Positions 20,657 through 33,588 of a DNA stretch of 37,482 nucleotides are shown here, one piece after another. Numbering within the stretch: position 1 is the stretch's first letter; each line of letters opens with the position of its first letter. Source of the DNA: Candidatus Ventrenecus avicola (GTDB lineage: Bacteria; Bacillota_I; Bacilli_A; RF39; UBA660); NCBI GenBank assembly GCA_018711945.1, contig DVHP01000013.1, positions 1 to 37,482 on the forward strand, given 5' to 3'. A model generated the notes under the pieces. That model ran no database searches, had not been told where the DNA came from, and saw nothing but the letters and a program-made list of their open reading frames with translations. The position numbers and the translations under genes are program-made.

Positions 20657-20971
20657 TTAATCACTCGTACAACTACCAACATCCCAGATACAATTGAAAC
20701 ATCCCCAGAACTCACTTTCATTCCAAGCATCAACCCAACTGAAAATCAGGCTAATAAGTGCTGGTAAAAAGAAAATACATACACCCGCAATACAACGAAA
20801 GACTAAAGACTTCACTGCTTTCATTAAAGTATCTTCCTTACTACCAACAATTGCTTTAAACAAATCGATCATTCCAAAGCCAATAATGATAATTGGAATA
20901 AAGATTTTAGCAATTCGGACAATATGACCGATAAAAATAAAAGTACTACTAAGTCCAGAACAATAATCCAT
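20657..20971 (-). CDS. VirB2/TrbC-like pilin paralog (minimal, no signal peptide)
   Basis: KIFIPIIIIGFGMIDLFKAI..KED.....KSL.FRCIAGVCIFFLP hairpin, then CxxC-x6-C. Confidence 0.75.
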   Translation of the reverse strand: MDYCSGLSSTFIFIGHIVRIAKIFIPIIIIGFGMIDLFKAIVGSKEDTLMKAVKSLVFRCIAGVCIFFLPALISLIFSWVDAWNESEFWGCFNCIWDVGSCTSD

Positions 20972-21798
20972 TACTCACAACTCCTAACATTTAAAATACA
21001 CTTCTGACAAGCATCAAATTCCCCTTTTAAATTAGCCCAAGAAGAAATAAGGGAAAAAACCAAACTAACCAATGTAGGGATAAAGAAAATAATAACACCA
21101 GCTACAACACGGAACGCAAAAGACTTCGCTGCTTTTCTAATTTCATCATCTTTGGAACTCGTAATTGCTTTAAAGAAATCAACCATTCCTAAAGCAATAA
21201 TAATAAGTGGAATTAAAATCTTTACGACAAGCACAATATTACCGATAAATTGTAGGGGTTCTTTAAGTCTTCCACAAGTTTCAGAATCACTAACGGATGT
21301 GCTACCTCCAGTACTTGGAGTTGTACCAGAAACATCATTATCATCGCTACTACTTCCACTACCAGGAGCTTGACTTTGTTTATATAGATAAACTTCTCCA
21401 TTAGAAAGTGTAATAGACACACCAGCATTGATAATTGCTCCACGACTAGACAATTGATCAAAAGTATATCTTTCACAATCTCCTACAGCATTACAAAGAA
21501 CATAACGGCCAGAAGAATCATTATAATAAAACATTCTTGTTTGACCATTCAAAGAATTATTATAAAAGTCCTGTTCAACAGAATTAAAGGTATAAATGAC
21601 ATTATCATAAGCAATTTGCTGTGTCGTAAAGTTAAAAGTAACTCCACTTTGTCCTGGACGAACCTCAATACAGTTTCCACGACTTTCACATAACATATAA
21701 TTTCCACTAGAATTTTCATAATAAAATCCATCAGCATATGCAACAGGTAAAAATACCAAAAAAGCAACCGCCATAATGAGTAAATACTTCCATTTCAT
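20971..21798 (-). CDS. VirB2-like pilin paralog with signal peptide and duplicated N-terminal domain
   Basis: Signal peptide ending AYA, two FYYxxSSGxYxLCxxxGxC repeats, Ser/Gly linker, then C-terminal pilin hairpin and CxxC-x6-C. Confidence 0.78.
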   Translation of the reverse strand: MKWKYLLIMAVAFLVFLPVAYADGFYYENSSGNYMLCESRGNCIEVRPGQSGVTFNFTTQQIAYDNVIYTFNSVEQDFYNNSLNGQTRMFYYNDSSGRYVLCNAVGDCERYTFDQLSSRGAIINAGVSITLSNGEVYLYKQSQAPGSGSSSDDNDVSGTTPSTGGSTSVSDSETCGRLKEPLQFIGNIVLVVKILIPLIIIALGMVDFFKAITSSKDDEIRKAAKSFAFRVVAGVIIFFIPTLVSLVFSLISSWANLKGEFDACQKCILNVRSCE

Positions 21799-21800
21799 AT

Positions 21801-22292
21801 TTAATCCATCCCTTCAATTTTACAAGAATCACTACTACAAGAATTCACGTCACACTCTCCGTTTAACAAACATTCTGTACAACAACACCAGTTATTCGAA
21901 TAATCGCTCCACTCATTAACCATATTTAAAACAAGTTGAACAATTCCAGGAAGAAGGAAAATCGCAACTCCTGCAATTACTCGAATCATCAAAGACTTAA
22001 ATGCTTTCGTAAGACCATCATCTTTACTTGAAGTAATCGCTTTATAAAAATCCATAATTCCAAATCCTATAATCACTATCGGTATTATGATTTTTACAAA
22101 ATTTAAAAGTGTGCCTAAAAAGAGCATCGGCTTGCGATAGGAAGGATCAGCACAAATACTATCCACGGTAACTTCATCCCCTGCCAAAACTCGAATAGAT
22201 AAAGAAGAATCATATATTTCTGCTGCACTCACCTGACGAAATAATCCAAAAGATAAGAAAAGTGCAAAAGCTATAACAAACAATTTTTTCAT
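21801..22292 (-). CDS. VirB2-like pilin paralog with signal peptide and Cys-rich tail
   Basis: Start at MKKLF after a GGTGATA RBS. Same hairpin motif. Tail WCCCTECLLNGECDVNSCSSDSC. Confidence 0.78.
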   Translation of the reverse strand: MKKLFVIAFALFLSFGLFRQVSAAEIYDSSLSIRVLAGDEVTVDSICADPSYRKPMLFLGTLLNFVKIIIPIVIIGFGIMDFYKAITSSKDDGLTKAFKSLMIRVIAGVAIFLLPGIVQLVLNMVNEWSDYSNNWCCCTECLLNGECDVNSCSSDSCKIEGMD

Positions 22293-22294
22293 CG

Positions 22295-22360
22295 TATCAC
22301 CAAACTTACATGTCAATTATATCAATAAACAAGCAAAAAAACTAGTGCATTTTACACTAG
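22295..22360 (-). promoter_or_regulatory. Terminator + extended -10 + RBS cassette, copy 1
   Basis: Minus strand CTAGTG-TAAAATG-CACTAG-T7...TTTATTGATATAAT...GTAAGTTTGGTGATA. Homologous to 33123-33191. Confidence 0.75.
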
Positions 22361-22381
22361 TCACAAAAAACCACTTAGAAA

Positions 22382-31483: not shown

Positions 31484-31533
31484 AATTCATCACTCTTACC
31501 TATCTAAAACACTTTTTAAAAATCACTAATAGC

Positions 31534-31562
31534 ATTATACAATATTTTTTTAAATACCTCAA
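31534..31562 (-). promoter_or_regulatory. Promoter TTGAGG-17-TATAAT for the pilin-virB6-prgI-trsD-virB4 operon
   Basis: -35 at 31562-31557, -10 at 31539-31534. Confidence 0.6.
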
Positions 31563-33118
31563 TCATTCTGTCCTGAAGTATCACACCCATCAATATCAAA
31601 CAAACAATTCCAACAATTATCAAAACTATTAGACTGTCCACCACCTATAATATTTTGAGCTGAATCATAAATAAAATTAATAATGCCAGGAAGCAAGAAA
31701 ATACCTACACCTATAACAACGCGAAGTGCAATGGCTTTAGCATACTTTTTCATATCCTCTTCTTTTCCTGAGGTAGTAATCATAAATAAATTCTTAATAC
31801 CAACAATAATAATAACAGCCGGAACTAAAACTTTGACAATGATAATAATGATCCCTACAGAACGCAATGTACTGGAAACATTAGAATTGCCACAAACGCC
31901 ACTTAAAGAAATATTACAATTATCACCATAGCAAACCTGTCCGGGATTATCAGTACCCTCAGGATTTGCTTCGCCTTCTTCTCCTTGCGTATATGAAGTA
32001 CCTTGCTGAGCCTCTTCTTCGTCCGTAGTTAAAACATATACACCTGCACCTATGCCGGCATCTTCATATACATAAAAGTTATTTCCAATACAAGAGTCTC
32101 CATAAAAATCATCAATACTTTGAGGTGATAGTGCAAAAGACATACCTCTTCCAGAGCTAGTATTTACAGTAACACTAACATCGGCATTACCAGTAAATCG
32201 ATAACTACAAGCTCTAGAATCCATTTCACTAGTCAAAACGCAGAATTCTCTTTGTCCATCCGGGTATGTCAACCAATAAAATGTCGCACCTTGAACTGCT
32301 GGCATAGCATTATTATTATAGTGACTAGCACATTCAATAGGATCTTCCTCTTGTTCAGGAGCGGTCTCTCCATATTCTTCCTCTTCAAGTTGAGAATTAA
32401 AAGTCGTTATTCCATCTCCGTAACCATTAACAGAAACTTGAAGCACATTGCCATCCCATACAAGATAAGGACAACGATTTCCGCTTTGTTCAAAAGCAGC
32501 CAAAACAGATCGTCTGGTTACATTAGATGATACGGTAGCAGCATTATTCGTATTTAACCCATAAATAGCAACATTATTTAATAATTGATTAAAATGTGTG
32601 TCCACAAAATCGCCATAACTATCATAATATAAATTTGTGTTATTCTCATCCTGTATTTCCAGCTGAAATCTCATATATGAAGATGTCGTATATGGAACTC
32701 TATAAGTACACCTTGCAAAAAAAGAATTGGAAGAATAAGATGTATCTTGATTTAAATAAGAATATGATGTCCGATTTCCAATATAACTTGTTAAATCATT
32801 TTCATTTGAACCAGCATATACATTATATCCCCAAAAACCATCTGTAACTAATACCATATTGGGACAACTAGATGTATTCAAACTACTCCAATTTTGAACA
32901 TCTTCCTTATTTCCTTTATTACCATTACCATTATGTTCCTTTCCATCAAATTTCTTAACAAAAGCTTTAACAGAATTGTCAGTGTAAATTTCTAAATAAA
33001 CAGTATCTCCTTCAGCTCCTCCATATTTACACTCAGTTGCTATATCTTTAGCTTGAACATATTCTAATCCTCCAAAAAACATAAATAAAAAACAAATACT
33101 ACCAACAATTTTTTTCAA
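31559..33118 (-). CDS. Large VirB2-like pilin/adhesin with about 370 aa variable N-terminal region
   Basis: Signal peptide ending VQA, three Cys-containing modules, acidic linker, pilin hairpin and CxxC-x6-C. Confidence 0.78.
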   Translation of the reverse strand: MKKIVGSICFLFMFFGGLEYVQAKDIATECKYGGAEGDTVYLEIYTDNSVKAFVKKFDGKEHNGNGNKGNKEDVQNWSSLNTSSCPNMVLVTDGFWGYNVYAGSNENDLTSYIGNRTSYSYLNQDTSYSSNSFFARCTYRVPYTTSSYMRFQLEIQDENNTNLYYDSYGDFVDTHFNQLLNNVAIYGLNTNNAATVSSNVTRRSVLAAFEQSGNRCPYLVWDGNVLQVSVNGYGDGITTFNSQLEEEEYGETAPEQEEDPIECASHYNNNAMPAVQGATFYWLTYPDGQREFCVLTSEMDSRACSYRFTGNADVSVTVNTSSGRGMSFALSPQSIDDFYGDSCIGNNFYVYEDAGIGAGVYVLTTDEEEAQQGTSYTQGEEGEANPEGTDNPGQVCYGDNCNISLSGVCGNSNVSSTLRSVGIIIIIVKVLVPAVIIIVGIKNLFMITTSGKEEDMKKYAKAIALRVVIGVGIFLLPGIINFIYDSAQNIIGGGQSNSFDNCWNCLFDIDGCDTSGQND

Positions 33119-33122
33119 TTTT

Positions 33123-33191
33123 TATCACCAAACTTTACTCCTTAAGTATATCAATAAAACCAAAAAAAAACTAGTGCAATTTACACACTAG
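33123..33191 (-). promoter_or_regulatory. Terminator + extended -10 + RBS cassette, copy 2
   Basis: Minus strand CTAGTG-TGTAAATTG-CACTAG-T9...TTTATTGATATACT...GTAAAGTTTGGTGATA. Confidence 0.75.
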
Positions 33192-33201
33192 CCTATTTTA
33201 A

Positions 33202-33588
33202 TTAATTGCCCCATGCTTCTTCAGCATACATTCCACAGCCACCATCGTCGTTTGGACTTGTAATACATTGTCTACAAATAGCATAGTCATCAGCAGCTCC
33301 AGAACTAGAGAAATTAGAAATTAATCCCAACACTAATCCAACAATCGTTGGCAAGAAAAATATTACAACACCAGCAATCGCACGCATTGCAAGTGATTTT
33401 GTTGCCTTCTTAATTTCATCATCTTTCGAAGCAATAACAGCTTTTCCTAAATCAAGCATACCAAAAACAATTAACAAAATTGGAATAACGATTTTAAAAA
33501 CTAATAAAACATATCCAACAACCTGCCAAATATTTGCAGTTGTTGCACAAAATCCCATAGTCTCTGTTCCGACAATTGTTTCTCCCAT
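33202..33588 (-). CDS. VirB2-like pilin, candidate major subunit
   Basis: 128 aa, KIVIPILLIVFGMLDLGKAVIASKDDEIKKATKSLAMRAIAGVVIFFLP, then CxxC-x9-C. Has its own promoter and terminator. Confidence 0.8.
   Translation of the reverse strand: MGETIVGTETMGFCATTANIWQVVGYVLLVFKIVIPILLIVFGMLDLGKAVIASKDDEIKKATKSLAMRAIAGVVIFFLPTIVGLVLGLISNFSSSGAADDYAICRQCITSPNDDGGCGMYAEEAWGN

Follow-up and report, generated by a model that had tools for sequence, protein, structure and literature searches.

A stretch of 37,482 nucleotides from Candidatus Ventrenecus avicola (assembly GCA_018711945.1, contig DVHP01000013.1), referred to as the window, carries six genes whose products share a C-terminal hairpin of two predicted transmembrane helices. 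These genes probably encode PF18895-type pilin-like subunits of a chromosomal type IV secretion system (T4SS) of the Gram-positive type, the hairpins of which would be stapled by disulfides between their N- and C-terminal flanks. An earlier note on the window, made from the sequence alone, had described the genes as a pilin family with a conserved cysteine clamp around the hairpin. This description is largely retained here, with corrections to the cysteine pattern of two members and to the comparison with VirB2.

All six open reading frames (ORFs) are encoded on the minus strand at the positions listed in the earlier note. One trio consists of a short protein of 104 amino acids (aa; 20657-20971) without a signal peptide, which has one cysteine before and three after the hairpin (1+3) and two further cysteines within helix 2, a 275-aa protein (20971-21798) with a signal peptide and a 1+3 pattern at the hairpin, and a 171-aa protein (21801-22316) with a signal peptide and a 1+7 pattern, for which an ATG eight codons inside the ORF is the likelier start. 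The N-terminal part of the 275-aa protein is formed by two beta-rich repeats, each with a C-x5/6-C pair, followed by a disordered Ser/Asn/Gly linker. The other trio comprises a 167-aa protein (30980-31483) with a signal peptide, an acidic linker and a 1+1 pattern, a 519-aa protein (31559-33118) with a signal peptide, an ectodomain of about 370 residues before the hairpin, a 3+3 pattern and 14 cysteines in its mature form, and a second short protein of 128 aa (33202-33588) without a signal peptide and with a 1+3 pattern (CxxC-x9-C). The latter is encoded by the first gene of the array and is the most conserved short type.

The C-terminal ~100 residues of all six proteins align readily, and their cores are 26-50% identical to the 104-aa copy. 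Eleven columns are invariant (K22, P26, I30, K51, K54, R59, G63, I66, F67, P70, and C101 in the numbering of the 104-aa protein), spanning a Lys-x3-Pro element in helix 1, two lysines and one arginine in or just past the loop, a Gly-x2-Ile-Phe-x2-Pro element in helix 2, and the last cysteine. The sequence motif that had been assigned to all six ORFs is essentially right, apart from its loose [DN]-x4-I portion and an FFIP in the 275-aa copy. A profile built from the six proteins recovered precisely these six places from the window's own assembly (1.35 Mb, 144 contigs, 77% complete) with E values from 2e-49 to 6e-36, far beyond chance, so the genome-wide paralog count that had been called for gives six, all within the window. 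The proposed cysteine pattern applies to the 104-, 275-, and 128-aa copies, which have one cysteine before the hairpin and CxxC-x6-C, CxxC-x6-C, and CxxC-x9-C after it, respectively, and to the 167-aa paralog with a single cysteine on either side, but not to the remaining two: the 171-aa copy has seven rather than three cysteines past helix 2 (CCCxxC-x5-C-x4-C-x4-C), and the 519-aa copy has CxxC-x6-C past helix 2 but three cysteines, not one, close before helix 1. With signal peptides removed, the number of cysteines outside the membrane is even in every case, with 4, 8, 8, 2, 14, and 4 in the 104-, 275-, 171-, 167-, 519-, and 128-aa proteins, respectively.

Besides weak sub-threshold matches to seven-transmembrane receptor families such as Frizzled, PF18895 (T4SS_pilin) was the sole recurrent match in Pfam. 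It was found at E<=0.01 in four of the six window proteins, in all cases below the cut-off, and 46 of the 53 members of the family alignment matched it at the same threshold; when six-frame translations are scored, the 128-aa gene passes the cut-off if it is counted together with its frame neighbours. A pair of transmembrane helices with a short, charged loop between them, the hallmark of PF18895, is present. Some cluster representatives also carry a precomputed PF18895 label, and the ESM Atlas returned nothing beyond the protein's own unnamed clusters and one cluster with 14% PF18895. From NCBIfam, the Mycoplasma pilin-like model NF045849 was matched by one of the six proteins, the 167-aa protein (E 1.3e-4, 21.5 bits, under the 40-bit cut-off). 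The wider family is very large, since a search of 1.84 billion cluster representatives yielded 10,061 clusters at E<=1e-3 (5,308 at E<=1e-10). Thus, the label pilin-like rests on PF18895, topology, and gene position, and homology to pilus subunits is no part of its basis. On these sequence comparisons, it is supported that the six genes form one pilin-like family of the PF18895 type, of which they are borderline members.

For comparison, 206 pilin ORFs from 66 loci were used as relatives, with helix boundaries set by profile alignment. The mean net charge of these relatives is +2.4 in the loop and -1.9 in the C-terminal tail, and the long forms begin with signal peptides according to heuristic calls. 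The basic loop, the acidic tail, and the signal peptides are therefore expected to place the loop inside and both flanks outside, in agreement with the expectation that the cysteine-bearing flanks lie on one, outer side of the membrane. In the AlphaFold2 model of the 128-aa protein, calculated from an alignment of 53 sequences (overall pLDDT 81), the helices span residues 18-53 and 56-89 at a pLDDT of ~90, and the cysteines sit in short flank helices. The N-flank cysteine is found 18-25 residues ahead of the conserved lysine and the C-flank cysteine 18-35 residues past the conserved proline. From this spacing, the cysteines of both flanks would lie outside the membrane, at a distance of a few residues from its outer face.

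The number of flank cysteines, counted up to 35 residues before helix 1 and throughout the part past helix 2, is even in 190 of the 206 relatives, zero in one, and odd in 15, although kinship among the relatives inflates this count and those that follow. The most frequent class is 1+1 (79/206 ORFs), followed by 1+3 (70/206), 1+7 and 3+3 (16/206 each), and minor classes (25/206). Of the 70 ORFs in the 1+3 class, 68 contain CxxC, with the third cysteine following after 6 residues (43), 8 residues (19), or 7-13 residues (6). The CxxC...C element is kept in all 120 best homologues of the 128-aa type. Of the 150 best-scoring cluster representatives, 122 were parseable, and the flank count is even in 115 of them, a proportion that is biased because the cysteines belong to the search profile. 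In the 275-aa type, all eight mature cysteines are invariant in 18 orthologues with 45-64% identity, and two ectodomain cysteine pairs flank beta-hairpin loops in the AlphaFold2 model (pLDDT 71.6); a fold search of solved structures with this model gave nothing at E<=0.001. The coexistence of several even classes with 1+1 as base state is better explained by pairing than by a single Cys4 metal site. Thus, where either a disulfide or a metal staple had been considered, the even counts favour disulfides, and a metal site fits less well because the commonest state is 1+1.

Outside the family, the clamp was found in one genome with a 69% identical VirB4, which encodes two proteins, both of the 1+1 class. 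It is absent from the protein of a second outside genome with a 61% identical VirB4, from all 14 PF18895 proteins encoded beside VirB4 of the type found in integrated conjugative elements (ICEs) of other Bacilli, and from all seven pilin-like proteins of Mycoplasma ICEs. As far as these comparisons reach, the cysteine clamp appears to be specific to this clade.

Disulfide formation is further supported by the cysteine content of other proteins of the host. Among 1,209 genes of the window's genome, called by a simple script with heuristic gene and signal-peptide calls, 148 predicted exported proteins have an even number of cysteines in 80 cases, an odd number in 42, and none in 26, whereas the 816 cytoplasmic proteins are distributed as 356 even, 375 odd, and 85 without cysteine. 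The even bias of the exported set is significant (binomial p 2e-4) and remains so when the window pilins are excluded (76 even to 42 odd, p 8e-4). Such a bias was reportedly used by Dutton et al. in 2008 as a genomic signature for inferring disulfide formation. It is unusual for an anaerobe of the Bacilli without known Dsb enzymes. When the genome was scanned for N-terminally anchored CxxC proteins, one of 245 aa was found that is encoded outside the window (contig C72:203-937). Besides its N-terminal membrane anchor, it has a CPWC site like that of thioredoxins and a motif resembling cis-Pro. Pfam gave no match, and the model of the PedC/BrcD bacteriocin-maturation disulfide isomerase is matched under the cut-off (E 6e-8). 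The protein and its CPWC site are conserved, often in two copies, in all five genomes in which no DsbA-like protein, DsbB, or VKOR was detected. It is a candidate exported thiol-disulfide oxidoreductase that could catalyze formation of the pilin disulfides. Based on the flank parity, the even bias of exported proteins, and the CPWC protein, disulfide stapling of the flanks outside the membrane is the best reading, though not a proven one.

The gene neighbourhood points to a T4SS. From pyk to mltG, all genes share one orientation; the genes for the 128-, 519-, and 167-aa pilins are followed by those for a VirB6-like protein, a VirB3-like protein, and VirB4 in two pieces, all on the minus strand. 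The VirB6-like polytopic membrane protein (699 aa, 28867-30966) matches PF04610 (E 6e-4) and NF045889 (E 1e-4), both under the cut-off. The small VirB3/PrgI/TcpE-like membrane protein (102 aa, 28544-28852) matches PF12666 and PF12648 weakly and positions 2-96 of the VirB4_plasma model. A stand-alone, TrsD-like N-terminal domain of VirB4 (189 aa, 27988-28557) covers positions 93-276 of NF045975 (E 1.4e-15), and the C-terminal ATPase part (594 aa, 26204-27988) covers positions 294-891 of the same model (E 4e-102); the latter also matches NF045971 (E 1.3e-55) as well as PF19044 and PF12846 above their cut-offs. The VirB3-like, N-domain, and ATPase ORFs overlap (26204-28852). The split of VirB4 into VirB3, N-domain, and ATPase ORFs was found in ten of ten related loci fetched and is not a pseudogene, because it is conserved across the family.

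The order pilins-VirB6-VirB3-VirB4N-VirB4C is found in all nine fetched loci with pilins beside VirB4, which come from nine genomes representing other species and genera. The VirB6-like gene starts within 200 nt of the end of a preceding pilin ORF in 49 of 49 loci; in the window, this is the 167-aa gene. All 206 pilin ORFs of the 66 loci lie on the VirB4 strand. In three other genera, the operon extends to three further genes, which encode a wall hydrolase of 570-880 aa containing a SpoIID and a lysozyme domain, a protein of ~250 aa, and a coupling protein of the VirD4 type (~710 aa; PF02534, E 3e-55). The ~250-aa protein, a membrane protein or lipoprotein, has no Pfam match that would identify it as VirB8-like. 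The PF02534 coupling protein is encoded in all five genomes, in the window's genome on a contig of 2.6 kb (C76), and ComEC is encoded in all five as well. In a same-genus genome assembled into 10 contigs, the hydrolase, small protein, and coupling protein genes are located 17 kb upstream of the pilin array and adjoin a Tad-like pilus locus and the gene for a surface protein of 1202 aa. Thus, VirB4, VirB6- and VirB3-like proteins (both with weak matches), a wall hydrolase, and VirD4, the components by which a Gram-positive (MPF-FATA-like) T4SS is recognized, are all represented.

The system follows the taxonomy of its hosts. The pilin profile matched all 24 genomes of the genus, at 1-12 places each, and in a class-wide draw of 300 genomes it matched every one of the 34 genomes from the taxonomic family to which the window belongs (27 genera, 0.7-1.4 Mb) and five of 265 others. 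VirB4 orthologues with 66-81% identity are encoded in 33 of the 34 family genomes, the single miss being an assembly of 100 contigs, and in two genomes from outside the family, those with the best pilin matches there (69% and 61%); every other VirB4 match in the class is at most 33% identical. Therefore, the pilin family does not occur independently of the orthologous VirB4, and the tie to VirB4 on which the earlier interpretation depended is borne out. The housekeeping genes pyk, dnaB-like/dnaI, ireB, ruvX, and mltG flank the system, and the GC content is flat across the window. A tblastn search of 72,556 plasmids found nothing. A relaxase of family PF03432, the only relaxase family searched, was found in one of five genomes, on another contig. 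By its sequence context and distribution, the system is chromosomal, vertically inherited, and placed among core genes.

In 64 of 66 loci, the pilin genes are found solely upstream of VirB4; they lie on both sides in two loci, those of the nearest relatives. The split layout of the window is common to these two relatives and some members of the genus. Since a single array is usual, the trio at 20657-22316 appears to be displaced, and the two loci described earlier are real but reflect a local rearrangement. A terminator-like hairpin with an 11-bp stem and a T run lies directly 3' of the 128-aa gene (33168-33194, minus strand), and another (22340-22362, minus strand) lies between dnaI and the second pilin trio. 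Both hairpins are strong and have nearly identical 25-nt cores; a connection with the rearrangement by which the array was divided is possible. The 128-aa gene is separated from pyk by 97 nt, and a promoter-like site in this interval (33627-33655, minus strand) has 10 of 12 consensus matches, but it is weak evidence, as such sites are overall no commoner than in shuffled sequence.

The N-terminal parts of the relatives differ widely in length, with fewer than 45 residues before helix 1 in 40 ORFs, 45-99 in 38, 100-249 in 50, and at least 250 in 78. The proposal that the free N-terminus carries extra domains is in line with these numbers, as 166 of 206 ORFs have at least 45 residues before helix 1. 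Comparison with the two nearest relatives further showed that these parts evolve rapidly. While VirB4 is 98%, pyk 95-96%, and the dnaB-like gene product 92-94% identical, the identity of the pilins is 91-93% for the 104-aa, 81-84% for the 128-aa, 70-84% for the 171-aa, 61-63% for the 275-aa, and 59-66% for the 167-aa protein. The 519-aa protein aligns over its last 198-269 residues only, with 49-54% identity, and its ectodomain matches just six ORFs in 80 related loci. Divergence of pilins and ectodomains beside near-identical VirB4 and pyk was counted as a point for surface exposure. The VirB6-like protein aligns over its first 375-486 residues only (70-71% identity), and its C-terminal half evolves as fast as the pilin ectodomains.

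From these data, the following sequence of steps can be proposed. The two-helix hairpin would be inserted into the membrane with its Lys/Arg-rich loop in the cytoplasm and both ends outside. The cysteine ~18-25 residues before the helix-1 lysine would then form a disulfide with a cysteine ~18-35 residues past the helix-2 proline, giving one bond in 1+1 forms and two or more in CxxC forms, so that the N- and C-terminal flanks are stapled. By analogy, this staple might play the closing role that cyclisation has in TrbC and VirB2. The N-terminus would remain free; it would bear a signal peptide, followed in most paralogues by an ectodomain that evolves fast and is rich in disulfides. The two short proteins of 128 and 104 aa, which lack such an ectodomain, would be the likely bulk subunits, and the 128-aa protein is the candidate major subunit because of its own promoter-like and terminator-like sites, which are weak evidence. 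VirB6, VirB3, and VirB4, together with the wall hydrolase, are suggested to extract the subunits and to assemble a wall-spanning stalk or short pilus, into which the ectodomain-bearing paralogues would be incorporated or at the tip of which they would be placed. The diversifying ectodomains could mediate contact with partner cells, and the coupling protein suggests that some substrate is moved.

Several observations weigh against this interpretation. None of the six window proteins reaches the PF18895 cut-off, the best being the 128-aa protein with 25.8 versus 26.6 bits (E 1.1e-5). A relationship to VirB2 was not recovered: PF04956 (TrbC/VirB2) is unmatched in all six window proteins and all 53 members, and hhalign against a 32-sequence alignment of Agrobacterium-type VirB2 gave a probability of 0.3%, although this alignment is narrow and may miss a very remote kinship. 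Structure searches returned generic helical hairpins alone (best HtrII, Z 8.8). With the 128-aa model, Foldseek found nothing at E<=0.001 in the PDB, and a wide VIA-align search gave 857 chains at Z>=5, among which T4SS pilins were not listed, with the same outcome in a repeat look; the best hit of a sequence profile search of the PDB was rhodopsin (E 0.12). The fold searches are uninformative on pilin kinship because helical hairpin folds are not discriminating. Cysteine parity is also less regular when whole proteins are considered. The mature long forms are even in 127 cases and odd in 29, with seven lacking a signal-peptide call, under a crude signal-peptide rule for which a fixed cut at residue 30 had given 113 even and 50 odd. 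The short forms are even in 37 cases and odd in six, and one type of ~340-375 aa appears to be truly odd. The flanks in the 275-aa model are of low confidence. The host lineage consists of gut anaerobes, and searches of five genomes, four with a completeness of 91-95%, detected neither DsbA-like PF13462 nor DsbB nor VKOR. Four metatranscriptome runs from a single chicken-gut study yielded contigs that span 19500-35200, with a flat depth of ~25 over all genes in the best run, but this coverage of RNA libraries is no proof of transcription, as DNA carry-over is possible. Finally, the formation of a pilus is deduced from genes rather than from an observed filament.

Accordingly, three other explanations have to be weighed. 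The hairpin could be a membrane anchor or docking module near the VirB6/VirB4 channel, or part of a channel within the membrane or wall, with no extended pilus being made. This explanation is possible, though doubtful. It would account for the 128 of 206 ORFs with at least 100 residues before helix 1, domains that a VirB2-type fibre could hardly accommodate on each of its subunits, and it agrees with the undetectable homology to pilus-forming VirB2 and with the report, in the available text, that pilins are required for substrate transfer even in systems making no pili (PMC12857230). All arrays examined, however, include short ectodomain-free forms, as would be expected of bulk subunits, and the transcription signals around the 128-aa gene, although weak evidence, speak in the same direction. 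Arrays of 2-11 divergent pilins are moreover present in Patescibacteria, for which the available descriptions suspect a pilus-like structure that is unproven there.

Binding of a metal by the flank cysteines, e.g. in a Cys4 zinc site formed by the N-flank cysteine, CxxC, and the last cysteine, is improbable. A CxxC with two more cysteines is a classic zinc pattern, and the lack of detectable DsbA, DsbB, and VKOR in inhabitants of an anoxic gut would fit such a site, but neither the prevailing 1+1 form nor the 1+7 form gives a single-chain Cys4 site, and 3+3 forms exist as well. In addition, ectodomain cysteines also occur in conserved pairs at strand ends (e.g. C-x5/6-C), exported proteins show the even-number bias, and a candidate exported thiol-disulfide oxidoreductase is present. 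It is very improbable that the locus is the transfer region, or a remnant, of an ICE and that the small proteins are ordinary conjugation accessories. Although VirB6, VirB3, VirB4, hydrolase, and VirD4 are the gene set of Gram-positive conjugation systems, the nearest NCBIfam models are those of Mycoplasma ICEs, and ICE-like loci elsewhere in the Bacilli have single PF18895 genes at a distance of 1-5 kb from VirB4, the occurrence in 34 of 34 family genomes with VirB4 at 66-81% identity, the housekeeping surroundings with dnaB-like/dnaI inside the gene string, the lack of a detected integrase or PF03432 relaxase nearby, the empty plasmid search, and the flat GC content all stand against it. This explanation was rejected on the grounds of distribution and genomic context. 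Disulfide-stapled pilin-like subunits of a chromosomal T4SS therefore remain the preferred interpretation. A bolder extension of it, itself unlikely, is that the genes encode a heteropolymeric VirB2-type filament of a walled Gram-positive bacterium with disulfide-closed subunits and hypervariable ectodomains, in which the CxxC helix may lock neighbours by thiol-disulfide exchange. Such a filament would be the Gram-positive counterpart, and possibly the source, of the Patescibacteria arrays and would serve contact-dependent uptake from or exchange with gut cells rather than conjugation.

Other genes in and around the system are less easily assigned. Past the VirB4 ATPase, a Fic-domain gene, the dnaB-like gene, a 258-aa ORF, and dnaI precede the genes for the 171-, 275-, and 104-aa pilins. 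The Fic-domain protein (220 aa, 25398-26060, minus strand) matches PF02661 above the cut-off (E 1.1e-6). Its gene directly follows VirB4 in the nearest relatives only, where other genera have the wall hydrolase, and in one near relative the only ORF found corresponds to its last 100 residues. The protein may be an effector, part of a toxin-antitoxin pair, or unrelated, and its membership in the system is uncertain. The 258-aa ORF (23251-24027) between dnaB-like and dnaI has no Pfam or NCBIfam match. Elsewhere in the genome, two giant cysteine-rich exported proteins are encoded at C103:13369-16753 (1128 aa, 43 cysteines) and C124:2185-4378 (731 aa, 41 cysteines), the former adjoining a Tad-like ATPase. 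A Tad-like locus is found between the T4SS coupling-protein genes and the pilin array in a same-genus genome (L027 9954-13562). One family genome, on a small contig (G319:C8), and a genome of another family (G033:C28) encode an additional T4SS of the ICE-like type, with a 104-aa PF18895 protein that is nearly identical in both. This points to a mobile element that the two have in common and that is separate from the chromosomal system.

The system has consequences for several broader questions. The cysteine clamp would offer a simple and checkable alternative to cyclisation for closing a pilin hairpin. The host lineage, in which exported proteins carry a disulfide signature while DsbA, DsbB, and VKOR were not found in the five genomes, would be an exception to the pattern of cysteine exclusion that Daniels et al. 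reportedly described for Firmicutes in 2010. Furthermore, single PF18895 genes beside VirB4 were found in 19 further Bacilli genomes among the 300 sampled; together with the family array they make the origin of such pilins testable by VirB4 and pilin phylogeny, and they suggest that monoderm T4SSs in general include pilin-like subunits, which have been overlooked.

Pilins of the VirB2/TrbC type and F TraA are cyclised or acetylated. They resemble the window proteins in being small two-helix hairpins with a basic loop and both ends outside, encoded beside virB3 and virB4, but no sequence or profile similarity and no specific structural match to the window proteins was detected, and they have neither ectodomains nor flank cysteines. 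The Mycoplasma ICE proteins Mbov_0395, Mbov_0396, and Mbov_0397 (NF045849, NF045889, and NF045975) have the same order of a small protein with two transmembrane helices, a large polytopic protein, and VirB4, provide the best-scoring NCBIfam models for the window proteins, and have a similar basic/acidic loop. In contrast to the window, they belong to a mobile element, VirB3, N-domain, and ATPase are fused in a single model of 894 positions instead of three ORFs, all matches of these models to the window proteins lie below their curated cut-offs, and seven of seven proteins are without a flank cysteine pair or ectodomain. The PF18895 proteins of ICE-like loci in other Bacilli, often above the cut-off, likewise have ~95-110 aa with two transmembrane helices and are encoded 1-5 kb from VirB4. 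They differ in occurring in one or two ectodomain-free copies, with cysteines in both flanks in none of 14, and their VirB4 is 22-33% identical to that of the window. In Bartonella Trw and Anaplasma, multi-copy variable VirB2 genes are present, as cited in PMC12102498 and PMC12857230, the available text of which describes tandem variable pilin paralogues thought to vary the surface that contacts host cells. These are, however, diderm MPF-T systems with true PF04956 pilins and without fused ectodomains or a cysteine clamp.

The closest described parallel would be the pilin array of Patescibacteria, with which the window is likened via published descriptions. According to the available portions of PMC12102498 and PMC12857230, T4SSs of Patescibacteria, e.g. 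Ca. Southlakia epibionticum, contain essential arrays of 2-11 divergent VirB2-like pilins near virB4 and the monoderm partners VirB6, VirB3/TrsC, a TrsD-like VirB4 N-piece, VirB4, and VirB1-, VirB8-, and VirD4-like proteins. As described there, they are chromosomal, lack a relaxase, occur in reduced genomes, and have PF18895 or PF04956 pilins. The three-piece VirB3/N-domain/ATPase arrangement of the window corresponds to the TrsC/TrsD/TrsE layout in the available text of the survey (PMC12102498). The hosts differ, being walled Bacilli of animal guts in the case of the window, and the coupling protein gene is adjacent in several genera of this Bacilli family, unlike in Patescibacteria. A flank clamp is not mentioned in the available text of either paper, in which the word disulfide does not occur and the word cysteine occurs once, in another context, in PMC12102498 and not at all in PMC12857230; a literature search found no account of a pilin cysteine clamp among the papers listed. 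Consequently, the suggestion of an undescribed pilin subclass stands insofar as the clamp marks a subclass (0/14 and 0/7 elsewhere), but PF18895 and the Patescibacteria arrays were already known, and databases already recognise such proteins in Bacilli, as the PF18895 and Mycoplasma ICE pilin-like families exist. What is undescribed in the literature searched is a clade-specific, cysteine-stapled, and ectodomain-bearing pilin array in a walled Gram-positive lineage. In the available parts of the 2025 review (PMC12857230) and the survey (PMC12102498), Gram-positive T4SSs are stated to lack VirB2-type pilins, with Patescibacteria as the sole exception, and the survey, as available, leaves the origin of the Patescibacteria pilins open. 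A whole family of gut Bacilli with small genomes (0.7-1.5 Mb) keeps a pilin array and partner genes that resemble those of Patescibacteria.

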